Shown here: piece after piece, positions 2,197 to 18,627 of the stretch
How positions within the stretch are numbered: the first letter of the stretch is position 1
Layout of the letters: each line of letters opens with the position of its first letter
IMG/VR virus record: IMGVR_UViG_3300037247_000703
Coordinates: 1-64,000 of that record
DNA length: 64,000 nt
Source: a virus
Strand: one strand, 5' to 3'
Translations under genes and position numbers: made by a program
The notes under the pieces: generated by a model
What the model was told of the DNA's origin: nothing
Seen by the model: the letters and a program-made list of their open reading frames with translations, nothing else
Databases searched by the model: none

Positions 2197-2517
2197 CTAC
2201 TTGCCGATGACGAGCAGCTCAAACGTGATGCCCGACAGGTCCACGGCGCCCGCGACTTCGGCGCCGGTCGACATGAGCTGAACGAGCAGCTTGTCGTTGG
2301 TCTTGTCGTAGCGCGCGACGTGATCGCTGTTGTTCTGCTGCACGACCGCCTCGATCGTGACGCCGGTCACCCCGAGCTTTGCCGCGACGAGCGCGGCGAA
2401 GCCGGCGGTGCCGCCGGTCGGATAGCTGTCGTCGCCCAGAAACGAAATCCGGGCCATCGAGAGCGGGCCGCCCTTGCGGCCGATCTCGTTATCTACGGTG
2501 ATTGCTCCGAGTGACAT
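2197..2517 (-). CDS. Putative capsid decoration/cement protein
   Basis: AGGAGA RBS; directly downstream of the major capsid gene; DSYPTGG motif; beta-rich. Confidence 0.6.
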   Translation of the reverse strand: MSLGAITVDNEIGRKGGPLSMARISFLGDDSYPTGGTAGFAALVAAKLGVTGVTIEAVVQQNNSDHVARYDKTNDKLLVQLMSTGAEVAGAVDLSGITFELLVIGK

Positions 2518-2576
2518 AGCTTGTCTCCTAGCTTGAGCTGCCTTAGTTGTGCTCCGTGTGCTGAACTTTGCCGCTA

Positions 2577-3530
2577 CTAGGCGACGAGAACGTTGATGCC
2601 CTTGACGACGGCGGTTTCCTCGGCGTACTTCACGTCGAAACGCATCGTCGCGACGATGATCAGCACGCCCTCGGAGACGAGCTTGTCGGTTTCGATGCGG
2701 ATCTGACGCCAGATGCCGACGTTGATGTTCTTGGGATCGACGAGCAAGGTGTTCGTCGAGTCGTTGCCGCCGCCGAGATCCTCGGGGAACAGCGGCACAT
2801 CGATGATCGGGATGCCCGACCAGTTGACCGGCGTGTCTTGCTCCAAGAACTTGTCACCGAGAACCGTGCCGCGGTCGGCGAGGAAGTCGCGGTAGTCGAT
2901 CTCCGAGTCGATCGACGTGAAAAAGCGCATCGCGCGCTTCGTGCGCAAGAACTCGCTCGGCATCGCCTTGAGCATGTTCTTGAACAGCGTCTTGTTCGTG
3001 CGCGTGGTCGAGTGGTCGACCACGTTCGACGTCGCTTGCTTCAGGATGCCGTCGAGCACCGCGAGGAAGGTGTCCGCGCTCGCGGTATCACCTTGGATGA
3101 TGACTTCATCCATGTCGCGCGAGATCGCCTCGCCCATCAGCGTCATGATGGTCTGACGCAGGGTGCCGCCCTCGATGGAGTCTTCCAACACTTCGTTGTT
3201 CAGGCGGATTTCCGCCTTGAACAACTCAGCGTCCAGCTCCGTCTGCGTCAGATCCGGCTTCGCGCGGTCGGTCGCCGCGAGCGCTGTGGCCTCCTGCCCG
3301 GCGCGCAGCACGCGCGAGGCGAAGCGGATCTTGTTGATCTCTTGCTTGTGCGACTTCATCGGCACAACGGTCGCTTGGTTCATGATGACGGATTCGTTGA
3401 TCAGAATCCGCATGAACTTCTTGGCCTGCGCCGGGGCGAGAAGGCCGCCGTCAGTCGTCAGATCCGACAGCGCGAGATCCGCCTTCTGCAAGATGGTCTT
3501 GTTGTCCATGACGTGTGCGAGCTGCGACAT
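2577..3530 (-). CDS. Major capsid protein (HK97 fold)
   Basis: GGAGGAG RBS; N-terminal [12 protein letters not shown]; E-loop/backbone helix region ([13 protein letters not shown]...DGILK); C-terminal TMRFD; 317 aa. Confidence 0.9.
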
Positions 3531-3548
3531 TCTGACTCCTCCGGTTTT

Positions 3549-4730
3549 TTAGCGGTCGAAGAATGAACGATGTGTTGGGGTGTTTTTTCGGGTCTGTTCC
3601 CGATTCAGGTCCATCGGCCAAGTCGTATCGTCATCGTCCGACCGCTGGCCCTTTTCTACCGGCAACGCGTTGGAGGTAACGCCCCTGCGCTTGCCCTTCC
3701 TGACACCTTGACGAAGTTTGCGCTCGTGACCCTCGACCTCTTTCGTGAGCTTCGTGACCGTACTGACAAGACTGTCAATCTTGGCCGCCGTCGCTTTGTC
3801 GAGTTTCGCTGTCCGATCGCCGCCGTCGTCGCCCTTCTTCTTCTCGGATTTGCCTGCACCCTCTTTCACTGCCGGGGCAAGCGAGTCTCGCAACGCGAGC
3901 AAAATTTCGACCGCTTCTTTCAACTTGTTAAAGCGGGCCGCTGACATTTTTGCGCCGGCCTTCTTCGTGCCGGTCGGGGCCTTGTCGGCCTTGCTGTATG
4001 ACGTCTTCGCCTTCCGCAAGTCGGCGATCGCCGCATCGGTCTTCTCGATGGCAACCCGCTCGTCGTCGACGTTCTTCATCGCTTCGGCGATGTTGGCGTT
4101 TGCCGCCTTGAGCGACGTCTTGAAATCGTCGTGGCCCGCCTTCGATGCGTCCGTCTTCTCTGCCGCTTCCTCTGCACGCTCGCGCAGTGCGGCCGGAAGC
4201 AACTTGTCGAGCGGGTCATCGGGATCGATCGAAGGCTTGGCGCCGAACTTGAGCTGCGCCTCGACGATGCGCGTGTGCACCACGCGCTTCGAGCTGTCGT
4301 TCTCGTAGTTGTCGGCGAACTGTTTGAACCGGGTGCGTGCGTTGTTGGCGCGGCCAGCCGTGTCGACCGGGAACTTCAGGTTAACCGGATCGGCATACAG
4401 GCTGAGCTTCGTCGGAAAGTTCGCCGGGAACGACAGGTTGCTGTTCGCTTCCAGTACTTCGACGCCGAACTTGCTCGAACGCTCCTGCCGCAGCTCGCGA
4501 AGCTCGTCATTCGTCGCGCCTTCGCGCGGCGCCTGCTTTGCTTCAGCCTTCGCAGTGACGAGATTGCCATCGTCATCCAAGACGATCTCGCCCTCGACCG
4601 TGCCGGACGTGTCACGCTTGACGATCAGAAACGGCTGCAAGTTCGCCGGACGATCCACGAGCGAAACTTCTTCGACCACGATTTCCGTGAGTCGATGAAC
4701 TTGCTCGTCGTCTTGCTTCGTTTTCGTCAT
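3549..4730 (-). CDS. Scaffold-like protein with an N-terminal prohead-protease strand ([10 protein letters not shown]) and a DUF6582-like domain
   Basis: [18 protein letters not shown] at the N-terminus; [13 protein letters not shown]...ANNARTRF motif; charged coiled-coil C-terminus; directly upstream of the capsid gene. Confidence 0.75.
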
Positions 4731-4745
4731 CTCCGTTGCGCTAAC

Positions 4746-4775
4746 AGTCTGGACGCTATCTCACACCTCTGTCAA
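4746..4775 (-). promoter_or_regulatory. Putative promoter for the scaffold/capsid genes
   Basis: TTGACA (4775-4770), 18-nt spacer, CAGACT (4751-4746) in the 47-nt intergenic gap. Confidence 0.45.
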
Positions 4776-4777
4776 TA

Positions 4778-7700
4778 CTACTCAGGTCGCCGAATCGCGG
4801 AACCTCCGATACTGAACCCGGTGAAGTCCCCCGCTTTCACGTCCTTCCACAGAGCATCCGATAGCACTCTGACAGCGAGCAGCCATGTACCGGCCTTGAT
4901 GACCCGCTCGCCGACGGAAAAGTCGGCGGGGGCAAGGAAGGATTCGAGGATCCTGACCTGTTTGGCGAGTTCTGTGTGCTGAATCCCGATGTTCTGGAAT
5001 TCGGCCATGAACTTGTGCGCAGCGGTCCGAACCTCGTCAGCCGAGTAGATATCCTTCTGCGCATCGACCGTCTCGGGTTCGAGGACGATCCCGTACACGA
5101 ATCTTTCTTCTTCGGCCTTCGCGATGATGAACTCGCCAACGCGGTAGCTCTTGGCGATCGCCTTCGCGGTTTCCGCTCGCGCGATTTTCCAGATTGAATC
5201 GGCGTCTTGGCCCTCGATCGTGAACACCCCCCGGAGCTTCGCGCCTTCGAAGCGAACCTTCATGCCGTCTTCAGTCTTGTCAACTACGACGGCGCGACCG
5301 CGGTCAGCAATCCAGATCGCCGAATCCCCGCTCGAATCATTCATCGGCTCGCCGCCGATCGATCCGCCGGCCTCGACGCCTCCGTCGAAATCGAGCAAAA
5401 CCTTCGAAGATCGATTGCGCTGAATACCGGCGACAGCGGCCTTGCCGATCGGGCTCGCTTGCAGCGTCCATCCGTCGAGCCCCTCGCCGTGCCGATCAAT
5501 GAACAAATGCCAAACGCTCTTGCCGTCTTTCCAGACCTGTTGCGACAGCGTGAACTGGCGCTGTTGATCGAGCGTGGCTTCTTCGATCGCAACTGACTGC
5601 ACGCCCTTGACGACGAAGTTCGACACGAAGACAAGGTTCGCGGTCGAGCACTTCTGAATCGTGAACGGCCTGCCGAACCGCGAGAAGGCGATGCGCGAAC
5701 CGAGCGAATCGGGCGCGGCGATCAGGATCGGCAGTTCGAGCGCAGCGGATTTCCGAACGAGCGAGTCAGCCGTTTCCTTTCCGTCTTGAAGCCAGCGTTT
5801 CGTCACGGCGGGATCGAGAACGATGACCGAATCGGGAAATTCCTTGGCATCGTCCGCGGTCGGGAACGCATCGTCGATCGACCACATCGCACAGCCGCGC
5901 TTGACGATGATCGCGATCACTTCCGCAAATGACTGCGGTCGCGCGAACTCGGCGTCGGCGTCAGGCTGGTCAGGCGAGATAAACCGCTTCGTCAGGATGC
6001 GCGTCAATTGATCGTTGACGACGGCCACATTCTCGCTAGTAAAAAATCCCGACTCGACGAGCGCATCCCGAACTCCTCGCGCACGATCGCCAGCCTTCCA
6101 GTAGCGATAGGCAGGGGGGACCGCGGTTTCGAGCGAGGCCGGCAGACCCGAACCGCTGGCCGGCATTCGCTTCGCCATCACCGCGCCCCACGTCAATACG
6201 TCGGGCAGTCCCTTCGAGAATTGCTCGATTTGGTCTAGCCGATCTTCGGCTTCGCCCTTCGTCGGGAAACATCCGAAATTGCGGCCGGTCGTCTCAGCAA
6301 TGACGCAGTATTCGCCATCTTCGTTTTGCTCGATGCGCTTCTCGGCTTCTTCGCGCTTCTCGGTAACTTCGAAGCGGTCGCGCATTTTGACGACAAGATC
6401 AGCGATCTCGACATGTGGCCGACTGAGATCGGGCGGGCCGCCCAGAATCTTCACGCCCTTCGCGGCATCCGCGCTGAGCATCTGCGCGATCGCTGCCTCG
6501 GCAGACTTGCGCAAGTCGCCCCCGGCGTGCACGTAGAGATTCCCATCCTGCAACACGATGACGGCCTTCTCGGCATCGAAGCTGCGCAGGCCGGCGAGCG
6601 TATCGCCCTTGGCCGCCACTCGCGCCAGCTCGCTCGCTGGCGGGACTTCCGGGTTGCCCTCCTGCGACGGCTCACCCTGCAACCGCCAGAACTCGCGCGG
6701 CGTGAGCGACGTGAGCACGCGCCCTTCGGGGGTCACGACTCGATGCGTGTGACCACCGTCGAATGCGGTCGTCTCGACCTGCATCTCGTGATCGTGGAAT
6801 CCCTCGATCTCGGTGCGTAGCTCGGTGCCGTCGGGAAGCACGAGCGCATGAACGTGCTCACCGTCCCATCCGATGTGCTCGCTGTCTTCGTCGTGAGAAA
6901 ATATCTTGTGCTCGTGCTCGCCGTCTTCGTTCGTCACAACGAGCGTGCCATCGGGCAACACGAACAGGTGGGTGTGCGCGCCGTCGAACTTCGTGCTGCT
7001 GTTGTCGCGATCAATCGCGTGAACGTGAATGCCCGCCTCGGCGTTGCCGCTCGGGAATCCTTTGACCATCGAGTTCGCGCTAAAATCTTCTTCGAGCGCC
7101 TTGAGCGCCTGTTCGCTGATCTCGTAGTTCGAGATCAGCAGATGCACGAACGGCTTGCCGTCAGACCGGGGCGCCGTGTGCCGACTCTCGATCTTTTTGA
7201 CGTGAAATCCGGTCGTGTCGATCTCGGATTTGGCCGTATAGGTGACAAGGAACTTGCCCTTGATCTCCTTGAGCGCCTCGACGAACTCTTCTTCGTCGAA
7301 CGCGTTTTCGCCGACCATCGCGTCGTGGCCGACGTAAGGCGGATCGAGAAAGAAAAACGCATCTTCAGCGTCGTACTTCTTCACCGTGTCGAGATAACTG
7401 CCGGTCAAAACCTCGACGTCTTTCAGGCGATCGCGGAACTTCTCGATCCGTTTCGTGGATGTAAGCCGCGAGCCTTCCTGCGCCGGGTTAAACCCCGCGC
7501 GCGCCTCGCTGCCGGCCACTCCCCCGAACGCGAATCCCGACACGTACAGAAAACGGTGCAGCCGGTCGACCTTGTCGACCGGCTGCTCGCTTGTTCGCAA
7601 TGACGAGTAGAGATCCTTGCTGCCGATCCATTCCTTTTTTTCGAGCTGCTCGAATTCGTCGTCGGTCAGGGTCTGAATCGCCTTGAATGCGAAGGTGATC

Positions 7701-8989: not shown

Positions 8990-10048
8990 CTAAATGTCGG
9001 GTACGACGATTGAGCGACAACCGCCGTGCAGAGGGGGCATCGTAACGCCCGCAGCCTGTAGCTCAACGTCGCTTAGAGTGTTTGAAAAACGGCCTATTTT
9101 GTCGCGCTGGCCTACCGCAGACTCGACCACGGTCGCCAGCCTCTGAGGCTCGCCGCCGGGCGGGCTGATCTGGATCTCCTGCCCTCCTTCAACGTTTCGT
9201 GTGCGCGCGAACGGCTGCACGTTTCGAATATCGAGCGGATCGGGCAGGGCCTCGATCTTGTCGAATGTCTGGATACCGAGATCGACCGAGAAGAATCGAC
9301 CGTGCATCATTCGGCACACGTCCGACGTGACTTCATCAAGCATCGCCTCGAAGATGAAGCGACGAATGTCGGCATCCTTGAACGCCGAGAGCTGACCGAA
9401 CGTGCGTGACCGATTGACGAAGACGCCGGCCGCGACATTCCAATAATTTTTTGATCTGGCGATGCCGTTCGCTCTGAGATTCTTGTCAAGTCTACCGGCG
9501 ATCTGATCTCGGCCTTCGCCGCGAGCGAGCCCGCCGCTCACGATCTGCCGCGCTTGTCGCGAGAAGACTTCCGAGCGCTGCCCGAACTCGTGCGTGATGT
9601 AGTTACCCTGACTGCTGACATTGAAGTCGATCACGCGCTTGTCAAACGCGTTGGTAGCGACCGCGATGTTGAGGTTGTGCCGGGTGCGCGTAGCCTTTCG
9701 TGTTTCACCAGTCAGTCGCGGACTCTCGACTTCAGCAACGCCGATGACGCCGGGCATCACAGCATTCGCGGAATCGCGAATTATCTGCGAACTCTGCTCA
9801 ATGAATCGGCGCCGCTGTTTCTGGGTTAGCCTCGGCCAGTCACGATCGAGATTTTTGATCGCGCGATCGAGTGCGACTCGCTCAGGCTTCGCGGCTCGCT
9901 CAAATGCCGCCGCCAGACGAATCGACAACACGACAAAATCTTTTCGGTTGAGCGGATTGAGCGCCTTGCGAATATCGATCCCGAACACATCGCAGAGGAC
10001 CGCATCGCAGGCAGCAACGCCGCGCGCATATAGCTCAGTCCGTTGCAT
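8990..10048 (-). CDS. MuF/SPP1 gp7-like minor head protein
   Basis: Follows the portal; FEAMLDEVTSDVCRMMHGR and C-terminal PPLHGGCRSIVVP motifs. Confidence 0.85.
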   Translation of the reverse strand: MQRTELYARGVAACDAVLCDVFGIDIRKALNPLNRKDFVVLSIRLAAAFERAAKPERVALDRAIKNLDRDWPRLTQKQRRRFIEQSSQIIRDSANAVMPGVIGVAEVESPRLTGETRKATRTRHNLNIAVATNAFDKRVIDFNVSSQGNYITHEFGQRSEVFSRQARQIVSGGLARGEGRDQIAGRLDKNLRANGIARSKNYWNVAAGVFVNRSRTFGQLSAFKDADIRRFIFEAMLDEVTSDVCRMMHGRFFSVDLGIQTFDKIEALPDPLDIRNVQPFARTRNVEGGQEIQISPPGGEPQRLATVVESAVGQRDKIGRFSNTLSDVELQAAGVTMPPLHGGCRSIVVPDI

Positions 10049-12083
10049 CGCCGCCGGTCAACTCGCGCTCGGCTTCGGCTTCGGTCGCCTTCTTCAAAAC
10101 CTCACGCAACTTGATCAGCGCGATCGCCTGTCGGTCAAGCTCGTAGCTCGCGAGAACGCGCTCGATGTTCGACTTGATCTGTGGTCGCAATCTGCGGAAA
10201 CGACGAGCGCCGGGGGCATTCGAGAACGGACCGCCGAAGGGGCCACCTTGCGCGGGCGCCCGCGTGCCCGGCCCTCCGGTCGTTAGGTCGGCCATGTCGA
10301 GCAACTCACCGCCGCCCTGTTCGAGCAAATCGAGCATGTCGCCGAACGCCTCGGCCTCTGCCTCCGGCGTGGCATCGGGATCCTCGCCTTCGTCTTCGGT
10401 GACGATCTCGCCGTCTTCGCCCGTCTGGATTCCGGCCACGGTGAGCGGCACCGGTTGCTTCGCCCAATCGGCGGTGATTGTGCGGAACTCGCGATTGAAG
10501 ACTTCCTCAAGGAGCGGACGCATGTCGAGCGCGGTCACCGCGTTGGAGTTCATCAGATCCTTGATCATCTTCGCGACGACTGCCGGATCGCGAGTGACAG
10601 GCGCGTTCGAAACGTATTTCCAGTAACGGATCCCGAACTCATTGAGCAGCAACCGACGATTGATCATGAAGTCGAAATCTTCACGCTCGGGCTGGAAGAC
10701 TTGCATCTCCGCGAACGCGAGGGCAGCGTCAGCGGTTGCGCGGTTGAAATCACGGATATCGCCGCGCAGCATTCGAGGCAACCGGAACGACATGCCAACC
10801 TTGTCGATGTTGCGTTCGTCATAGTTTTGAAACAGCGCGTCGTTGTGCTGCGCTGCGGTCAGCGGCTTCATCTCGATCTTCACGCGGCCCGAATTTTCGC
10901 TCGCCTTGCTCGATACCGTCTCCGCTTCTAACACCATGACCGAGTGAAAGTTCTTGCGGCCCTTGATGTTGTTCTGAATGAAATCCTTGATGCGTTCGAC
11001 CGAGTTGCCCGACAGCTTGCCGCCACTGATCAAAAGTGCCATCGGCGGAACGCCCTTGCCATCGAAGTAGAGAAAGTTCACTTCCTCGGATTGGCGCGAA
11101 CCAATCACCGAGAGCAGATTGCCGATCCATCGCGGCACGCCATAGGCCGATTCGGGATTGTGAATCGGAAAGTAGAGCAACTCGGTCGCGGGACCGTCGC
11201 TTTCATCTTCGAATTCCGCTTTGCCCTCTTCGTTCGTCGGCATGACCTTGCCAGTCTTCTTCGAGATCACGCGCGGGTCGCCGAACTCCTTGAAGAAGAC
11301 TTCCCGATCTTCAAAAACCTGAATGAAGCGGCGGAACCGTCGCTGCACTGCCACGTCTTCGAATGACAGATCGGAAATACGCACGCGCATCTCGACCTCG
11401 ACGGGATCATCGAGCGGCATCAGGCGAATGCTGAATGCGGGCAAATAGTTGAACTGTACGACTTCACCGCCGTCGTTGCGCAGCGCTTCCCATGTCCCCC
11501 AACCGATAACCTCGCGATCTTGCCGTGACCGCTGGCGCAGTTCCGAAAACGAAATGTCGGGGCAACAGAAGTCGAAGAAGTTTTTGAGCCACGCCTTCTC
11601 AAGCTGCATTTGCAGTTTGATTTCTTCTTTCGCTTTGCCGACGTCTTCATCGGTCGGAATCAACTCGCCGACGTCTTCGGACATGGCCTCGCGCGGATCG
11701 ACACCCTTGTCGTGCAGGCTTTCGAGAAACAGCGCGTTCTTGATTCGTTCGTCAGCGTCTTCACTTTCGAGGTTGATGACCGGCTCGAATCTGTGGCCGA
11801 AGCCGTCGATGTTCGTCTGGTACGCGTCAATATTGGGACGCAGGGAGTTCGAAACCCGATAGAGCGCACACAGATCGTCGGGCTCGAACGGCGGAACCAA
11901 TGCGCCATGCGTGGAGAACCTATTGCTGACTCCGGCCTCGATGACGTTCGAGGTAGGGAGATTTCCGCGATCGATAAAGTGCGCCTTGATCAGCGGTGAC
12001 GTATCGAGCATGTCGCGCAGATTGCGCGGCTCGTCGGGATCAGTCTTCACCTGTCGCGTGTCACTCTTTTCTTCGTCGCCCAC
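10035..12083 (-). CDS. Portal protein (PBSX/XkdE-like)
   Basis: YGVPRW, NFLYFDGKGVP, FRLPRMLRG, FNRATA motifs; GAGG RBS before GTG. Confidence 0.9.
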   Translation of the reverse strand: MGDEEKSDTRQVKTDPDEPRNLRDMLDTSPLIKAHFIDRGNLPTSNVIEAGVSNRFSTHGALVPPFEPDDLCALYRVSNSLRPNIDAYQTNIDGFGHRFEPVINLESEDADERIKNALFLESLHDKGVDPREAMSEDVGELIPTDEDVGKAKEEIKLQMQLEKAWLKNFFDFCCPDISFSELRQRSRQDREVIGWGTWEALRNDGGEVVQFNYLPAFSIRLMPLDDPVEVEMRVRISDLSFEDVAVQRRFRRFIQVFEDREVFFKEFGDPRVISKKTGKVMPTNEEGKAEFEDESDGPATELLYFPIHNPESAYGVPRWIGNLLSVIGSRQSEEVNFLYFDGKGVPPMALLISGGKLSGNSVERIKDFIQNNIKGRKNFHSVMVLEAETVSSKASENSGRVKIEMKPLTAAQHNDALFQNYDERNIDKVGMSFRLPRMLRGDIRDFNRATADAALAFAEMQVFQPEREDFDFMINRRLLLNEFGIRYWKYVSNAPVTRDPAVVAKMIKDLMNSNAVTALDMRPLLEEVFNREFRTITADWAKQPVPLTVAGIQTGEDGEIVTEDEGEDPDATPEAEAEAFGDMLDLLEQGGGELLDMADLTTGGPGTRAPAQGGPFGGPFSNAPGARRFRRLRPQIKSNIERVLASYELDRQAIALIKLREVLKKATEAEAERELTGGDATD

Positions 12084-12086
12084 GAA

Positions 12087-12401
12087 TTACCTCGCCTGCC
12101 GGCGTTTTTTCTGGCGCGGCTTCCGCACGATACGCGACGGGTCTTCGCCCTTCCAGACGTAGACGATGACTGATCCGTATGGCTCGGGATCAGGAGAAAA
12201 CGACAGCGTTCGAAGCTGGTAGTTCTCTTCCGCGAGCTTCTCCTTCACGATTCGCCGGCAGTTCTCCAGCGATGTCGCGATAACATCAAACTCGGTCTTC
12301 AGGCTCGGAGTTGGCCTTTCGGGCGCACCCGCCGTTCGCTCGACCTCGTACACGCGCACCGGGTATTTCATGCCGCCCATACTACGACGCACCTCGGACA
12401 C
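12087..12401 (-). CDS. Hypothetical protein
   Basis: Abuts the terminase stop; lies between terminase and portal. Confidence 0.6.
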   Translation of the reverse strand: MSEVRRSMGGMKYPVRVYEVERTAGAPERPTPSLKTEFDVIATSLENCRRIVKEKLAEENYQLRTLSFSPDPEPYGSVIVYVWKGEDPSRIVRKPRQKKRRQAR

Positions 12402-14657
12402 TCAATCGATGATGTGGATGCCGATAATCGCACCCTCGCTTCGTAAGGTGCGATCCTTACTGCACGCAAGGGCGCAGGCCCAAAAACGATCAGCGTGACC
12501 CTTATCGGTCGTGTCTGTGCTCGTGAGCTGTGTTCGTCCAGCCGGCGTGATCTTGCGGCGAATCGAATGGATCTGCGACACGAGTTCCCGCTCGCGGGGC
12601 AGCACAATCAGACTCTTCTGTAAGCCGATCTTGAAATCGGTGGCCCACGTTTCTTTCGATGGCCCGGTGAACGTGACGCCCTCGACTTGCGGATAGTCGT
12701 CGGCAAGATTTTCGGTCAAGTGCATGCCGATACCATTTTGATCGATCAGCATTCGACCGATCGGCAACAGGTTCAGCATCTGCCGAAGGCTCGCCTCTTG
12801 CGTTTGAAATTTCACCTTGTCGTAGCGCTTGAGTAGCCGGCAGATGAAGCGACCGTCATCAAGCTCGTCGAAGATCGCGAGTTCGGAAAAGTCTTTCTTG
12901 CGACCGACGTCGAAGCCCGCGTGAAGTCGGCCAATGTGTTTGACCTGCGAGAAGTCGTCAGCAAGTTCGAGCGAATCGTTCGTCGCCGGAAGAATCAGCT
13001 CATAGGGAAAAAACGACATCGCTTCGTCGACGTAGACAACCTCAAACTCCTGCTGAAAGTCATCGAGCGGAAGCGAGGAAAACTGTTCCTTGATGCCCTG
13101 CGTACCGAAGCGCGCAACCCGTTCTTCGGTCGCCATCTTCAACGCATCGCGCGAGGCCGTCACAACGTCGTTGCAGAAGAACGAACACAGCCACCACGGA
13201 ACCTTTTGCCGCCAATAGGATCCGTAGGGCCGAAGCTCTTGGCGGGCGATCTCCCAAAACTGCCCGCGCCGGCCAAGCGGAGACGAGCACACCGTCATCT
13301 GTCCCTTCGCTCGAAGGATCAGCGCGGTCGATCCTTTGTAGACCTCCCTATCGTTGGCGTAGTGAGCAAGCTCGTCGAGGTAAATATCGCCCTTCTTCCC
13401 GCGAGGCGCACGAGACGGATGCGAGATGATTCGACTGACGCGCTTGCTCGACGAGTTGGATCGGAAACCGAGTTCGAGCTTCGAGTCGACGACCTTTTTC
13501 TTCTGAAATTCGAGCGGCAATTCTTCGTGTAGCTGCGCGGCGTAGGCGATCTTTTCTTTCGAGTCAGCGAGGTTGTACGAAACGAAAATCGAGTTGTGGG
13601 TTTCCCGAAGATGTGACCGGGCGATTGCCTCGCATGCGAAGAGAAACGAATAACCAACCTGTCTGCCCTTTTCAACACAGCGATACGGGGCGCGCGTGGC
13701 GAGAAATGCTTGCTGATAGGGTTCGAGCCTCAGCGGCTCGTCATCGAAGCGGGCGATACCCTGGAGAAACCCCGATTCCGTGGCGATCCACTCGCTGAAC
13801 TCTTCCTCGGTGCGTTTAACAACAATGAGCGGCCCTGAGTTGCTTTGTGTTTCCTCTTTTGCTACAATAGCGGCAGACGCACTATCACCATCAGGAGGCA
13901 ACCCATGAGTTTCGCCAATCGGGGGCGACCCCCCATCACTTTGACCGACGTCGAGCAAGCCCGGCTTCTCACTGTCAGCGGAGAGCACCGTGACGGGTTC
14001 CGTGACCACATCATTTTCGCTGTCGCCCTCGGTACTGCCTTGCGCGAATTCGAGATCGCCGCCCTCAACGTCGGCGACGTAGTGACGGGCCAGCTCAATC
14101 GCCGCACTCCAGGCATCAAGCGGCGCGTCACCCTCACCATCTTCAAGCGATGCGCCCAGAAGCCCGCCCCGCAGCAAGTCTTCCTCCCCGATTCGCTCAT
14201 CCACAAGATGCGAACCTTCATCAAGTGGAAGATCAGCAACGGGGAGAACGTCGAGCCCGGCGCCCCGCTGTTCATCAGCCGCAAGGGCAATCGAATCAGT
14301 CCACGCACTCTCCGGTTCATGTTCGCCAACTGGCAGCAGCGCGCCGGCTTCGACCGCCGGTTCACTTTCCACCACCTCCGGCATACCGCCCTGACCAACA
14401 TCTATCGGCGCACTCGGGATATCCGTGTCGTTCAGCGAGCTGCCCGGCACGCCAACATCAACACCACCACAATCTACGCCACCCCCACTGACGAAGATAT
14501 CTTGCGGGCCGTCCGCGACCTGCCCTGTTAGACTCTCGTTGTTCCGCGAGGACGCGGCGGGCATTGCTTCTCCCAAAGGAGGCACAACTAGCTTCGCCCT
14601 CGCGGGCTCTTTTTCGAGCTGCTCAGCGAGCAGCGCTTGAAACGAGAGCTTCCCCAC
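12402..14657 (-). CDS. terL: Large terminase subunit; conserved part is about 12402..13830; N-terminal ~270 codons overlap an antisense recombinase
   Basis: EPYQQAFL, Walker A KGRQVGYS, Walker B IYLDELAH, SSP motif, nuclease GFDVG and HADRFWA. True start uncertain. Confidence 0.85.
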   Translation of the reverse strand: MGKLSFQALLAEQLEKEPARAKLVVPPLGEAMPAASSRNNESLTGQVADGPQDIFVSGGGVDCGGVDVGVPGSSLNDTDIPSAPIDVGQGGMPEVVESEPAVEAGALLPVGEHEPESAWTDSIALAADEQRGAGLDVLPVADLPLDEGSHLVDERIGEEDLLRGGLLGASLEDGEGDAPLDAWSAAIELARHYVADVEGGDLEFAQGSTEGDSENDVVTEPVTVLSADSEKPGLLDVGQSDGGSPPIGETHGLPPDGDSASAAIVAKEETQSNSGPLIVVKRTEEEFSEWIATESGFLQGIARFDDEPLRLEPYQQAFLATRAPYRCVEKGRQVGYSFLFACEAIARSHLRETHNSIFVSYNLADSKEKIAYAAQLHEELPLEFQKKKVVDSKLELGFRSNSSSKRVSRIISHPSRAPRGKKGDIYLDELAHYANDREVYKGSTALILRAKGQMTVCSSPLGRRGQFWEIARQELRPYGSYWRQKVPWWLCSFFCNDVVTASRDALKMATEERVARFGTQGIKEQFSSLPLDDFQQEFEVVYVDEAMSFFPYELILPATNDSLELADDFSQVKHIGRLHAGFDVGRKKDFSELAIFDELDDGRFICRLLKRYDKVKFQTQEASLRQMLNLLPIGRMLIDQNGIGMHLTENLADDYPQVEGVTFTGPSKETWATDFKIGLQKSLIVLPRERELVSQIHSIRRKITPAGRTQLTSTDTTDKGHADRFWACALACSKDRTLRSEGAIIGIHIID
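13840..13868 (+). promoter_or_regulatory. Sigma70-like promoter of the recombinase
   Basis: TTGCTT (13840-45), 17 nt, TACAAT (13863-68) with TG extension; AGGAGG RBS at 13893. Confidence 0.7.
13893..14584 (+). repeat. Direct repeat AGGAGGCA (13893-13900 and 14577-14584), 684 bp apart, flanking the recombinase
   Basis: Exact 8-mer, each copy followed 5-7 nt later by AG(T/C)TTCGCC. Confidence 0.5.
13905..14531 (+). CDS. Tyrosine recombinase, catalytic domain only (208 aa)
   Basis: RDHII..ALGTALREFEI (Arg-I), FK, HHLRH (HxxR), RHANINTTTIY (His, Tyr); ATG at 13905 after AGGAGG. Confidence 0.92.
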   Translation: MSFANRGRPPITLTDVEQARLLTVSGEHRDGFRDHIIFAVALGTALREFEIAALNVGDVVTGQLNRRTPGIKRRVTLTIFKRCAQKPAPQQVFLPDSLIHKMRTFIKWKISNGENVEPGAPLFISRKGNRISPRTLRFMFANWQQRAGFDRRFTFHHLRHTALTNIYRRTRDIRVVQRAARHANINTTTIYATPTDEDILRAVRDLPC

Positions 14658-14673
14658 GAATTGAGTCTACTGC

Positions 14674-15012
14674 CTAACGCGGGCGACTGCGGGATCGATC
14701 TGGTGTCGGCGGTTTCGTGGCATCGCTGTGCCTGCGCATAAAGTCGGTGCGCTTCTCAATGCCGGGCCGGAACGTGCAAAACAGCGTGACCGTGACACAG
14801 TGAAATTCGTTGTCGCTCGATTGCGTGATTTCGCGATCGACCACCACGAGATGATTGTTTGCCGCGAGCCAACCAGTGATCTTCTCTCCGAGCACGGACC
14901 GATCGCCCGCGGTCGTGCCGGCGAACATTTTGATCACGTCAAAGTTCGGGCATCCTGCCCGGCGGTTCACTTCAACCTGTAATTCTTCGGCGTTGGTTTG
15001 TCTCTCACCCAT
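14674..15012 (-). CDS. Hypothetical protein
   Basis: AAGGA RBS; protein-like (VIKMFAGT...ITQSSDNEFHCVTVTLF). Confidence 0.65.
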   Translation of the reverse strand: MGERQTNAEELQVEVNRRAGCPNFDVIKMFAGTTAGDRSVLGEKITGWLAANNHLVVVDREITQSSDNEFHCVTVTLFCTFRPGIEKRTDFMRRHSDATKPPTPDRSRSRPR

Positions 15013-15182
15013 GCGCTTGCAATCCTTATCGCATCGCGGGCGCAGACTTCATCGCGTGTTTCGAGAAGATCCGCGATTCGATCTCGGATCGCTTCGTTGC
15101 CGTTGTCCACGGCACGCGCGATCGCGAGATAATCCTCACGATGCACGTCAAGGGGATGCGCCGCCGTCCGATCCTCGCCCAT
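14967..15182 (-). CDS. Small hypothetical protein
   Basis: ORF 14967..15200 with a probable ATG at 15182. Confidence 0.45.
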   Translation of the reverse strand: MGEDRTAAHPLDVHREDYLAIARAVDNGNEAIRDRIADLLETRDEVCARDAIRIASAWVRDKPTPKNYRLK

Positions 15183-15271
15183 TTTGCGGAAGCCTAACAC
15201 GGCCGCCGGACACTGAGAATTTGAACCATTTCAATGGGTAACGAAAAAGTACGAAAAATCGACTTTTCCTG

Positions 15272-15300
15272 TTGACGGTTCCCGGTTTGTTGCCTATGAT
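15272..15300 (+). promoter_or_regulatory. Strong sigma70-like promoter
   Basis: TTGACG, 17 nt, TATGAT; upstream A-tracts; GAGG RBS before 15326. Confidence 0.75.
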
Positions 15301-15325
15301 GTAAACACCACCCAAAGAGGCAACC

Positions 15326-15841
15326 ATGAGCTACCTGAACGCACCGCAAACCGAACTCATCGCAACTAGTTGCTGTGTCTGCGCCCGTGCGCTCTGCGAC
15401 TCCGTATCCGTCGAGCTGGGCATCGGCCCTGTCTGCCGTTCGAAATTCGGCTTCGACATGGACGCCGACGAAGCCACCCGCGCCGCTGCGAATGCACTCG
15501 TACATCGCATCGCCGTGAACCAGAGCGGCGAGCAAGCTCTCGACGATTGCCGCGAGCTGCGCACGCTGGGATTCGAGAAGCTCGCTGACCGCATCACCGA
15601 GCGGCTTGCCGGTCGCGCCGGCATCATCATCGCCGAAGTCGATGGCGGTTATCTCGTGACCACACCCTACAACGAGGAAGCTACGCCCGCGTGGCGCTGC
15701 GTTCCGGGCCGCCGCTGGAATCGCGACGAGAAAGCGAACTTCGTACCGGTCGGCGCGCGAGGCGATCTGTGGGCGCTCTTGCGCACCTACTTCGCCGGTT
15801 CGGTTGCGCTCGGACCGAAAGGCGGATTCGTCATCAACTAG
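15326..15841 (+). CDS. DUF6011-like zinc-binding protein with a C-terminal HARP-like segment
   Basis: CCVCARALCDSVSVELGIGPVC; C-terminal PYN...VPGRRWNRDEKANFVP. Confidence 0.7.
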   Translation: MSYLNAPQTELIATSCCVCARALCDSVSVELGIGPVCRSKFGFDMDADEATRAAANALVHRIAVNQSGEQALDDCRELRTLGFEKLADRITERLAGRAGIIIAEVDGGYLVTTPYNEEATPAWRCVPGRRWNRDEKANFVPVGARGDLWALLRTYFAGSVALGPKGGFVIN

Positions 15842-15860
15842 AAAGGGTAGACTCAAATCG

Positions 15861-16553
15861 ATGAAAAACCTGACAGTCATTTTGAAGCGACCCGGGCAAA
15901 ATCCGATCGTCGAGCAGATCGAAAACACCCCGGCGGCAATGCGTCAGGCGGTGCTCGATACCGTGACAAAGCGAACAGTCATCGCGAACAATGGTCACAG
16001 CCGCTTCGTCTTCGTGACCCGTTTCGACGACGAAGGCGAATTGAACTTCGTTATCGAGGGCGCGGCCTTCTTCGGCCCGGCGATCTTCACGAAGCTCGAT
16101 CCATCGGGCAACCGGATCGACCTGACCGAACAAGAGTGCGAAGAATGGATCGGCTACATCAACAAGCTCGTACAACACACCACCGAAGGCCAACCCGAGT
16201 CAGTTGAACGCGCGAAGCCCGAGCGCATCATCAACGACAAACACTCGATCCAGATCGTTCCGGCAGACGCGACCGACACAGAGACGGGTAATCCGCTCAC
16301 GCCCGAGCAACTGATCGAGCGCATGGCCGAACAATGGGGCATCGAGTTCGAGCACGTTCCCCTGACCGATCAGAACGTCTATGGCGCCGCGCTCGTCGTC
16401 ATCGAGTCATCGATCGAGTACACGGTCGCCGATGAAGAGACGATGCTACTCAACATCGGGGAAGGCGGGGCGCCCTACTATCTCAGGGTCATCGAGATCA
16501 CGAAGATCGAGAACGAAGAAGCCCGAGAGCAGTTCCCGCACATCGACGGCTAG
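15861..16553 (+). CDS. Hypothetical protein (N-terminus DUF3846-like)
   Basis: VILKRPGQNPIVEQIENT...DDEGELNF...FFGPAIF; ATG at 15861. Confidence 0.6.
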   Translation: MKNLTVILKRPGQNPIVEQIENTPAAMRQAVLDTVTKRTVIANNGHSRFVFVTRFDDEGELNFVIEGAAFFGPAIFTKLDPSGNRIDLTEQECEEWIGYINKLVQHTTEGQPESVERAKPERIINDKHSIQIVPADATDTETGNPLTPEQLIERMAEQWGIEFEHVPLTDQNVYGAALVVIESSIEYTVADEETMLLNIGEGGAPYYLRVIEITKIENEEAREQFPHIDG

Positions 16554-16586
16554 CGGCTGACAGATCCGCGTGCGAGTATTGGCTCG

Positions 16587-17156
16587 ATGCGGATCACGAA
16601 AAGCGCAGTTATCGCCTTGCTCGTCGGCCTCCTGCTCGTGGCCGGTATCGGCATCTGGTACAAGCTCGGTGTCGAGCCGGGGATCCCCGTCTGGGCCGAA
16701 GGCAACAAGGCCGTCGAATGGCCGCGCGAGCGCCTTCCGCTCAAGGTATGGTGCGAATCCGATCAAGACGATTGCCGCGCCGCCGTGAATTTGTGGAACG
16801 ACGCCGCCGACTGTCCGTTCCTTCTGTGGGTCGAGCGGCCTGACGGCGCCGACGTTCGCATCGTCAACGGATCAGCGAACGATCCCGAGCGCGGCGATGC
16901 GTGGGAAAAAACATTCGCGAGCAAGACCGGCGATCAGGTGAACTACGTCGAAGTTCGATTGTACGAGCCGCCCATCAGTCTTAGCTCGCCCTACTCGATA
17001 CGATACGCTGTCAACGCCCACGGGATTTCGCACGGCCTCGGGCTTGCGCACACAACCTTCGGCATCACGCGCGCCGTACTGTCAGGAACCAATCCCTATC
17101 CGCGCGTAGTTGACAAACACGGCCGCGCTTTGCAAGAAAGATACTGCGAACCATGA
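16587..17156 (+). CDS. Membrane-anchored matrixin/metzincin-like protein, probably catalytically inactive
   Basis: N-terminal TM helix; AVNLWN, ADVRI and HGISHGLGLAH (HExxHxxGxxH with E replaced by G). Confidence 0.7.
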   Translation: MRITKSAVIALLVGLLLVAGIGIWYKLGVEPGIPVWAEGNKAVEWPRERLPLKVWCESDQDDCRAAVNLWNDAADCPFLLWVERPDGADVRIVNGSANDPERGDAWEKTFASKTGDQVNYVEVRLYEPPISLSSPYSIRYAVNAHGISHGLGLAHTTFGITRAVLSGTNPYPRVVDKHGRALQERYCEP

Positions 17157-17169
17157 TTGGAGAAAACTG

Positions 17170-17460
17170 ATGGCACAGATAGTCGAGAAGGATCTCGTAA
17201 TCGACGAAGCGTTCGACATCTCGCGATTCACCGAGAAGAGTCTCGTTGTCCATCCCGGCGCGAGCGGCGACTACGACGTCGAGATTTCGAACGACGGCAC
17301 GATCTTCCTCGATCTCGTGACCGGCATCGTGGCGGATACGTTTCTCCGCGGCGGACGCGGCGCAACCGATATCCCGCTCGCAGTGAAGTTCATCAAGATC
17401 ACGGAAGACGTCGCCGGCACGGATCCGACCTTCAAATTTCTCGGCCTCGACAGCGCCTAG
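17170..17460 (+). CDS. Hypothetical beta-rich protein
   Basis: GGAG RBS before ATG 17170. Confidence 0.6.
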   Translation: MAQIVEKDLVIDEAFDISRFTEKSLVVHPGASGDYDVEISNDGTIFLDLVTGIVADTFLRGGRGATDIPLAVKFIKITEDVAGTDPTFKFLGLDSA

Positions 17461-18258
17461 CCTGAATGGCGCTATCACAGCGAACGCACTGGCGCGTCTG
17501 GCGTGTCAATCCGAAGAATCGTCGGGCACGCTATGCCGACGCCGCCTGTCCAACAACCTCGCGCCTACCGCTCAAAACGACAACCGCCCCCGACCGCGTT
17601 GACTGCCAACTATGCCAGCGAATCCTCGCTGCACGATCCCCCAAAAGCCGCAAATGAGCTAAGCTCATCGACGCGGGTCATGTTCCGCGCCGCTTTCGCC
17701 CTCGGTCGGGTCGCGCTGGCCGGGGGCGGGCTTTATCCGACAGAAATCGACGTAGAGACGCGTTACTTTCTGTCAGAATCGGCCGCAGTCTGGGAAGGTC
17801 GGTCACGATCCTCAGAAGGTCGCAAGCGCTTCATCAGGCGAGGCCGGATCGCCTTCTCGACTCGCGCAAAGGCATCGGCTGCGCCGCGGGTAATCGCTGT
17901 GACGAGTCGTTCGAGCATTGGCCCATGCTATCGCATCACGTCGCCGATTGCCACGCGCAGATCAAGCAACAACCGATCGACGCGCACAAGTGCCTCAGCT
18001 TTCGCATCAGCGATGTGAGGTTCCCGCAAAACTTCAGGGCCGAGCTTGAGCGCTCCATCAACTGCGACGAACCAAATCTTGCTCTCCGGCGCGCGCTCGA
18101 CAATAACGCGCAGACCATCCATCGGCGACACTTCGTAGCGGCACCGGCTATGCTCCCTCCAGCGCCTCCGCGTGTCCCTTCGCCGTCTCATGGTCTGCAC
18201 GATAGCGGGGCAGTGCGACAGCGGAGTCAAAAAAGCTACAAATTTGCGTATTTTTTTG

Positions 18259-18288
18259 TTGCAAGCGCGCGCCGAGTTGTCATAGGAT
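18259..18288 (+). promoter_or_regulatory. Sigma70-like promoter
   Basis: TTGCAA, 18 nt, TAGGAT; upstream A/T tracts. Confidence 0.55.
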
Positions 18289-18312
18289 CAGAAGACGCAC
18301 AAGAGGCAACCA

Positions 18313-18627
18313 ATGAACGAACCGAAACACACTGTCGCCGAACTGTCGGAAAAATTCGAGACGATGTTCGGCATCCCCATCGAGCAAGGCATCGAGCGCG
18401 TGAAGCTGCTCATGCGGCGCACGATCTCGATGGGCGAAGCAACCAGCGGCATGAATTGGAATGGATTTTTCGGTCTGTCAGTACGCAGCTGTTCGCGCAC
18501 GACGATCGAGGATCACGACTTCATGATGTTCGCTTTCTTCGCGATGTACGGACTCGGACAGTTCGAGGCGTTGCCAAAGGTCGAGCTTCGCGCGACGCCG
18601 CCGGCCGCGTTGCTTCAGAAGCCCTGA
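18313..18627 (+). CDS. Hypothetical protein
   Basis: GAGGCAACC RBS; promoter upstream. Confidence 0.65.
   Translation: MNEPKHTVAELSEKFETMFGIPIEQGIERVKLLMRRTISMGEATSGMNWNGFFGLSVRSCSRTTIEDHDFMMFAFFAMYGLGQFEALPKVELRATPPAALLQKP

Follow-up and report, generated by a model that had tools for sequence, protein, structure and literature searches.

Inteins with an antisense-encoded homing endonuclease have been described, phage terL being among the genes that harbour them (Gorbalenya 1998; Gogarten 2002; bioRxiv 10.1101/2025.01.02.630785), and a phage methylase, that of ShiLan, carries an in-frame insertion that hides an HNH endonuclease encoded out of frame (PMC11855218). Long translated genes antisense to annotated genes have been reported as olg1/olg2 in Pseudomonas aeruginosa (PMC8850804) and in enterohaemorrhagic Escherichia coli (EHEC; PMC9927249), while in the excludon a long transcript serves both as mRNA for one gene set and as antisense RNA to a divergent neighbour (PMC7154746). 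Operon genes can be translationally coupled through stop/start overlaps of the ATGA type, and untranslated mRNA is subject to Rho-dependent polarity, Rho terminating both untranslated and antisense RNA (PMC12360218; PMC5909445). Here, a locus touching on all of these systems is described from a 64,000-nt stretch of viral DNA (hereafter the window), comprising positions 1 to 64,000 of the 100-kb IMG/VR virus record IMGVR_UViG_3300037247_000703, whose only matching sequencing run is a marine sediment metagenome. As an original prediction for this DNA had claimed, a complete tyrosine recombinase gene (PF00589) on the plus strand sits inside an intact 751-codon minus-strand frame that ends with the large terminase gene, terL (Table 1). 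The part of this frame upstream of terL, crossing the recombinase, is referred to as ORF-X (open reading frame X).

Triplet boundaries coincide in the two frames (13905 and 14655 both being multiples of 3), so that antisense stops can arise only through TTA, CTA or TCA codons of the recombinase. A set of 131 loci with both genes was collected from viral, metagenome and genome collections; in essentially every one the recombinase lies upstream of terL in divergent orientation, and it adjoins terL in 110 distinct loci, which divide into type A (34 loci, the window included) and type B (76 loci), with 8 further loci in which the genes lie apart. Across the 110 adjoining loci, TTA, CTA and TCA account for 7 of 3822 leucine and serine codons in the recombinase versus 191 of 7491 in TerL (p=5e-26), where about 97 would be expected in the recombinase from the TerL rate, a 14-fold deficit. 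TCA is never used in 22,515 recombinase codons and is used 97 times in TerL; expressed relative to TerL, usage is 0.26 for TTA, 0.11 for CTA and 0.00 for TCA. Relative to TerL, the 18 control codons ending in A or T range from 0.46 to 2.31 in usage, and two thirds fall within 0.8–1.15 (CTT 1.00, TCT 1.08, CGA 0.99), and since the depletion is limited to three codons while the controls behave normally, a GC-rich codon bias does not explain the open frame. Where the genes are more than 500 nt apart (8 loci), no depletion is found, with 9/271 in the recombinase and 19/605 in TerL. Reducing the set to one representative per 80%-identity cluster leaves 0 such codons against 17.1 expected in type A, and 7 against 37.2 expected in type B. 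Codon usage in this family demonstrates that the antisense frame is kept open by selection on the codon choice of the recombinase, and not by chance.

The TerL tree splits into two main clades that correspond to types A and B (SH-like approximate likelihood ratio test support of 100, with 21 distinct type A loci in the tree) and that differ in how terL begins. Type B terL has its own ATG or GTG 2–3 codons ahead of an IVKR motif, with a good Shine–Dalgarno (SD) sequence, and the frame across the recombinase terminates at a TGA or TAG overlapping that start; of 73 distinct loci, 55 have this stop at +1 (ATGA/GTGA), 8 have it at +4 and 3 at −2. In type A, which includes the window and its relative L032, the start is replaced by G/A-P-L; the median best SD pairing is −4.3 kcal/mol versus −6.6 kcal/mol in type B, 10 of 33 distinct spacers between recombinase and terL contain no ATG, GTG or TTG at all, and two of them (L056, L142) lack even a near-cognate codon. 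By these comparisons the type A clade has no terL start of its own. In each of the 34 type A loci, terL is exactly in phase with the frame antisense to the recombinase, and no stop interrupts it over that gene; type A spacers, 64–115 nt in length, are every one 1 mod 3, and indels inside spacer families occur only in multiples of three.

The other end of the frame shows a similar organisation. Types A and B share a homologous, conserved gene upstream (gpU, phrog_32085; weak helix-turn-helix match). Of 90 distinct loci, 75 have the frame open from the stop of this gene, and about 70 have an in-frame start between −32 and +7 nt relative to it, with RTGA overlaps in 29. L086 provides an example, in which the upstream gene (4966–5730), a GTGA junction, the open frame (3881–4969), an ATGA junction and TerL (2448–3884) follow one another. 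The junctions of the relatives, with the stop/start overlaps that mark translationally coupled operon genes, have the architecture of coupling at the sequence level; in the window, GTG 14657 stands 16 nt past the TAG of the upstream gene (14676–14674), as originally predicted, and terL is fused to the frame. Antisense stops together with a conserved terL start in homologues had been put forward as observations that would speak against translation through the frame. A conserved start, the ATG/GTG before IVKR in another relative frame, does occur in the sister clade type B; because the type B frame ends in an ATGA overlap at that very start, translation of the antisense frame is not refuted by it. 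Members of the type A clade in which the recombinase is displaced by 660–1050 nt (L088, L004, L007) have regained an ATG of their own, and the upstream frame is closed. In L004, and likewise in the type B loci L106 and L109, what displaces the recombinase is an HNH endonuclease gene on the terL strand; in L004 the HNH gene prolongs the antisense register frame, which from this arrangement seems to express it.

The frame also continues outside the recombinase. Past that gene, the register frame stays open for a median of 183 codons, versus 22–28 in the other two same-strand frames, and its length there ranges from 16 to 385 codons. Openness past the recombinase was considered as a type A trait and rejected, the median being 207 codons in type A and 180 in type B. 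On the terL side, stops in the register frame number 0 over the 33 type A spacers and 2 over the 71 of type B. Of the five other spacer frames, four contain 8–53 stops and the remaining one, in type A, just 2; because that frame is nearly stop-free as well, an open terL frame across the spacer is by itself weak evidence. GC content past the recombinase is flat over codon positions (0.70/0.68/0.70), and substitutions are spread evenly over them (39/34/35, for example, compared with 13/6/50 in TerL). Across the recombinase, variable columns per codon position of the antisense frame number 87/23/36, with similar figures in other families, a pattern that tracks the constraint on the recombinase itself and in which antisense first positions vary most. 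The even substitutions and the variable antisense first positions argue that the antisense amino-acid sequence is unconstrained and that only stops are avoided; the same counts show no purifying selection on an antisense protein of the kind expected for an overlapping protein-coding gene.

From the upstream gene to the recombinase lie 320–840 nt of non-coding DNA with conserved short nucleotide motifs. The motif GAYTGCCGCTTCTC is present twice, 10–150 nt past the upstream gene stop (L033, L035, L040, L050, L067, L006 and others), with a related motif, GGCCGCTTCCC, in type B; such motifs are candidate recombinase, pac or promoter sites. Searches of the window and its relatives against Rfam and for tRNAs, covering this stretch, gave no match.

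The recombinase is the sole opposite-strand gene within the packaging/late transcription unit, and its terminator is one-directional, so that minus-strand transcription is not stopped there. Given the action of Rho on untranslated and antisense RNA, an untranslated antisense stretch of 1–1.5 kb in the late operon would be exposed to termination, and also to pairing with the recombinase mRNA. The best explanation, to which we assign a probability of about 0.62, is that continuous translation over the antisense recombinase brings ribosomes to terL. Ribosomes leaving the upstream gene would restart at or near its stop, at GTG 14657 in the window or possibly at ATG 14564, and would translate ORF-X, the amino-acid sequence being immaterial, from the 3′ untranslated region (UTR) of the recombinase through the antisense of the whole gene and into the promoter-bearing spacer. 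In type B, ORF-X would then hand ribosomes to terL by termination–reinitiation coupling at the ATGA/GTGA overlap; in type A, a phase change of one base would have fused ORF-X to terL, so that ribosomes simply continue, yielding TerL as a long polypeptide with an unconstrained N-terminal appendage of ~250 amino acids (in the window, 751 residues in all if made from GTG 14657 and 720 if from ATG 14564), unless the extension is later removed. On the simplest account, such a one-base change interconverts the coupled and fused states, and the fused state has lasted through the deep divergence of type A.

The selected benefit would be uninterrupted translation itself, delivering ribosomes to terL and guarding ~1–1.5 kb of antisense mRNA against Rho-type polarity or against duplex formation with the recombinase transcript. 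Late transcription and recombinase expression would be mutually exclusive, and an action of the recombinase transcript as antisense RNA against terL, as in the original prediction, is plausible. Extended to the phage family as a whole, the proposal is that a ‘ribosome bridge’ of 0.4–1.5 kb, free of amino-acid constraint, is maintained to keep the late operon translationally continuous, that it has reshaped the codons of the recombinase, and that in one clade it leaves a junk TerL N-terminus of 250–600 amino acids; we consider this wider statement an even bet. The original prediction had offered two alternatives, TerL translated through the antisense codons or the locus rearranged before TerL is made. 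The former gains strong comparative support, from a type A clade that has neither its own start nor an SD, is always in frame, and has that frame shielded from stops by codon choice; the latter found no support, as discussed below.

Several points weigh against continuous translation as the explanation. Translation and transcription of the frame are predicted from sequence comparison, and the anti-polarity purpose is something that we infer. GTG 14657 has no SD. The loci are phylogenetically related, which inflates the p-values, while the cluster-level test still holds. In the window lineage, gpU is missing, as is the long non-coding stretch of other loci, so that part of the family evidence applies to the window by homology. 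The open frame of the window, taken by itself, is compatible with chance: at the codon frequencies of 20 long genes of the window, 1.32 antisense stops are expected in its recombinase, and the probability that none occurs is 0.27. Finally, the closest relatives share TTG 13901 (within ‘LPP’), and the homologues P0006 and P0008 have been called from that position, so that a shorter TerL, initiated internally, may be made as well.

This last point also favours an alternative in which the functional TerL starts in the spacer, at TTG 13901 or at ATT 13826 or another near-cognate codon by GPL, with the upstream frame a mere bridge or untranslated and the fusion a by-product. Most type A loci do have TTG, CTG, ATT or ATC at one of two sites beside GPL, and the clade members with a displaced recombinase bear an N-terminal extension of only 16–27 codons from their own ATG. 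Neither site in the window has an SD, anti-SD pairing being −1.9 kcal/mol at TTG 13901 and −3.1 kcal/mol at ATT 13826, and the claim that the stretch from 13901 to the TerL core contains neither an ATG nor a GTG in frame proved correct; the type A spacers devoid of ATG, GTG and TTG, or even of near-cognate codons, and the register kept at 34 of 34 loci also speak against it, and with no intervening stop, ribosomes in the upstream frame would run into TerL anyway. We regard a spacer start as unlikely, though it merits consideration. Conserved internal starts antisense to His codons of the recombinase (positions 30, 37, 51 and others) were examined as start sites and rejected as a by-product of His conservation, with no consistent SD. 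That ORF-X instead encodes a functional disordered protein or domain, rich in Arg, Ala, Gly and Pro, in which composition matters (a DNA-binding partner or N-terminal domain of the terminase, for example), would account for a frame open for at least 400 codons in most loci and fused to TerL in one clade. An AlphaFold2 (AF2) model of the 751-residue ORF, built on a 12-sequence alignment, has predicted local distance difference test (pLDDT) values of 25–40 over residues 1–280, and the N-terminal part of ~250 residues of the window TerL is predicted to be structureless; the model is weak and carries little weight, its ATPase domain being of low confidence too. Substitutions that fall equally on the codon positions past the recombinase, a part that varies from 16 to 385 codons and of which the window lineage keeps 42, and the lack of any Pfam family match to ORF-X make this idea improbable. 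Chance openness through GC-rich codon usage, about which the original prediction had cautioned, is a fair concern for the window sequence alone, where antisense-register runs of 200–360 codons are open in other genes and where inclusion of the 67 flanking codons lowers the probability to roughly 0.02–0.03 (an estimate from base composition); relatives, moreover, have a GC content of 0.8–0.99 at third codon positions. At the family level, the same caution is contradicted by a depletion that is specific to three codons, is measured against TerL of the same loci and is gone where the genes are apart, and by a frame that is also open in non-coding DNA, where codon bias cannot act, and chance becomes a very improbable explanation.

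The rearrangement alternative holds that the recombinase excises or inverts DNA and forms a compact terL before expression. An imperfect direct repeat of ~27 nt flanks the window recombinase (around 13893/14600), and a 14-bp inverted repeat with 13 of 14 positions matching (14657–14670/15847–15860) had been noted as something that might act as an inversion switch. In L032 the far-side copy of the direct repeat is not conserved, nor is the arm of the inverted repeat (4 mismatches at 14657–14670), and about one such 14-mer pair is expected by chance per 4 kb, by estimate. The gene pair is also present in the sister clade, where terL has a start of its own, and a joined, recombinase-free TerL N-terminus is seen in none of the TerL homologues. 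Two specific forms were rejected on these grounds, an excisable element like skin/sigK and an invertible switch like that of FimB/FimE, for which no strong inverted repeat flanks the recombinase. Contigs from the likely source run cover 11500–16500 without joints, an observation uninformative on rare rearranged forms. Rearrangement is, by this evidence, scarcely credible, and an intein with an antisense mobility gene, or a spliced intron, is less so still. Antisense-endonuclease inteins in terL give such an idea its precedent; the 751-residue ORF has no Hint or intein domain match, the extension is N-terminal to the whole TerL and not within a conserved motif, type B closes the frame with a stop codon at the junction, and Rfam searches including group I and II introns gave no match at E<=1 in window positions 12000–16500, nor at E<=0.1 in 6 relatives.

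Table 1. Coordinates of the recombinase–terL locus in the window.
Feature	Position	Strand	Remarks
Uninterrupted 751-codon frame (ORF-X fused to TerL)	12402..14657	−	GTG 14657 to stop 12402–12404
TerL core, 474 amino acids	12402..13826	−	Matches the whole 476–500-residue TerL of most homologues
26-codon spacer in the TerL frame	13827..13904	−	Stop-free, without ATG or GTG; TTG 13901–13899 and ATT 13826–13824 are weak alternative starts
First 42 codons of the long frame, past the recombinase stop	14532..14657	−	GTG 14657 is the earliest start after in-frame TAG 14669–14667
Upstream same-strand gene, 112 amino acids, no family match	14674..15012	−	TAG 14676–14674, 16 nt before GTG 14657
Small tyrosine recombinase, 208 amino acids, from ATG	13905..14531	+	Xer-like catalytic domain only; no TTA, CTA or TCA codons
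Recombinase promoter-like site, TTGCTT-17-TACAAT, inside the TerL-frame spacer	13840..13868	+	TTGCTT 13840–45, TACAAT 13863–68
Recombinase SD, AGGAGG	13892..13897	+	7 nt upstream of ATG 13905
Intrinsic terminator of the recombinase, GC hairpin and T run	14593..14614	+	One-directional

The terminase of the window is of the T4-like type (PF03237 and PF17289), its ATPase and RNaseH-like nuclease domains both scoring above cut-offs; within the 751-codon ORF these occupy residues 329–554 and 581–733, respectively (Pfam Terminase_6N/6C, spanning 329–733). Among 1098 TerL homologues, most have ~476–500 residues, with the first residue 2–3 codons ahead of the IVKR motif, and long ORFs homologous to that of the window (720–765 residues) are present in 11 relatives. 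At the position of the long-ORF start, GTG is kept in L032 and M is found in P0002-4 and P0009-12; ATG 14564 is an alternative start with a better SD than GTG 14657 and is not conserved. The first 42 codons of the frame, which lie past the recombinase stop, run over the recombinase terminator. Their N-terminal segment, MGKLSFQALLAEQLEKE, had been called protein-like; the segment overlaps hairpins of the recombinase 3′ UTR and terminator, so that its look and its conservation may be nucleotide-level features. The starts of the portal gene (12079–12100) and of the long ORF (14653–14674) share a context, AATTCGTGGG, around a GTG just past the preceding stop, which may be a recurrent junction motif of the window phage.

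The recombinase scores 85.2 bits against PF00589 (cut-off 27.1; E 5.8e-24) and matches the phrog_216 integrase at E 1e-31, and its catalytic residues (R47, K81, H156/R159/H160, R181/H182, Y191) are invariant in 9 family members. Its 208 residues align with about residues 100–290 of Xer proteins; identity as a Xer-type recombinase (XerA/C/D) was rejected, NCBIfam scores being 52–84 bits against cut-offs of 220–335 and the N-terminal core-binding domain being absent. In an alignment of the window with L001–L011, the recombinases have ~205 residues, consist of the catalytic domain only and share an invariant C-terminal Cys (…LPC). The promoter and ribosome-binding site of the prediction were all located, from TTGCTT, the 17-nt spacer and TACAAT to AGGAGG and ATG 13905. 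The promoter-like site is absent from the consensus-scan list because its −35 element agrees at only 3 of 6 positions; a −35-like CTTGC element is kept at the equivalent position in every family spacer, and nearly all relatives retain CCTCC, the complement of the recombinase SD. Two type B subfamilies, with loci of the L134–L160 type and spacers of 57–60 nt, have the recombinase ATG only 6–8 nt past a conserved −10-like box (CATACAC/GATACAG complement) and without an SD, an arrangement that suggests leaderless recombinase mRNA.

The phage family is widespread and uncultured. Named hosts of its loci are almost all Myxococcota assemblies, with type B relatives in those of Archangium and Myxococcus (loci L160 and L171, for example), and one Myxococcales metagenome-assembled genome (JAJZQG01) contains at least 5 distinct recombinase–terL modules (L134, L144, L146, L151, L156), which suggests multiple related prophages or a mixed-strain bin. 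The gene pair was found in none of the cultured phages searched, the best cultured TerL match being 36% identical. The low-GC subclade of the window is represented at the DNA level by L032 only (94% identical; DNA 84.5% identical over 10001–15297). With a third-position GC content of about 0.65–0.7 in this subclade, chance alone would give 1–3 antisense stops per recombinase. Synteny between the two breaks at 15297 and returns at 18317 (window 15297–18317, L032 5397–7871), ~3 kb having been replaced, and the break adjoins a strong plus-strand promoter, TTGACG-17-TATGAT (15272–15300).

These loci are a clean example, and one that can be quantified, of synonymous codon choice on one strand being shaped by the need for translation of the other, and suggest that operons may tolerate an embedded opposite-strand gene by translating straight across it. 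For annotation, the ‘terminases’ of 720–1000 residues and the ‘hypothetical proteins’ of 360 residues at these loci are not shadow-ORF artefacts of GC-rich DNA, and terL starts in the type A clade cannot be fixed by seeking a nearby ATG. The loci also offer a natural test bed for Rho polarity, for antisense interference, and for the tolerance of a packaging motor to junk N-terminal extensions.

No description of an oppositely oriented gene crossed by such a coupled, unconstrained frame was found in the literature searched, and each of the closest described systems shares some of these features. As in the antisense-endonuclease inteins, an essential phage gene, there often terL, is stop-free across a complete opposite-strand gene, and the stretch has no recognisable fold; here, however, a Hint domain is absent, a tyrosine recombinase takes the place of the homing endonuclease on the antisense strand, and the stretch lies upstream of the whole TerL, reaches into non-coding DNA and is, in the sister clade, a separate ORF ending at the terL start. 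The ShiLan insertion is likewise neither intein nor intron, is read in the frame of the host gene and conceals a gene in an alternative frame, although the gene concealed there shares the strand of its host gene and lies within the host protein, whereas the recombinase is antisense, in exact register, N-terminal, and equipped with its own promoter and terminator. Ordinary translational coupling offers the ATGA/GTGA overlaps found at both ends of ORF-X in relatives, and untranslated RNA, antisense RNA especially, is a Rho target there too; what is coupled here is a frame of 360–1000 codons without amino-acid constraint that crosses an oppositely oriented gene. The olg1/olg2 and EHEC genes are also long ORFs antisense to annotated genes with signs of selection, but in those cases purifying selection acts on the antisense protein, while here openness alone is selected and antisense first codon positions are free. 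In the layout predicted here, a long transcript would serve as both mRNA and antisense RNA, as in the excludon, with the difference that its antisense part is also kept translatable. What sets the recombinase–terL loci apart is the combination of a recombinase with its own promoter and terminator, an open frame that extends into non-coding DNA free of amino-acid constraint and of any splicing element, and the resolution of that frame either as a coupled ORF or as a fusion to TerL.

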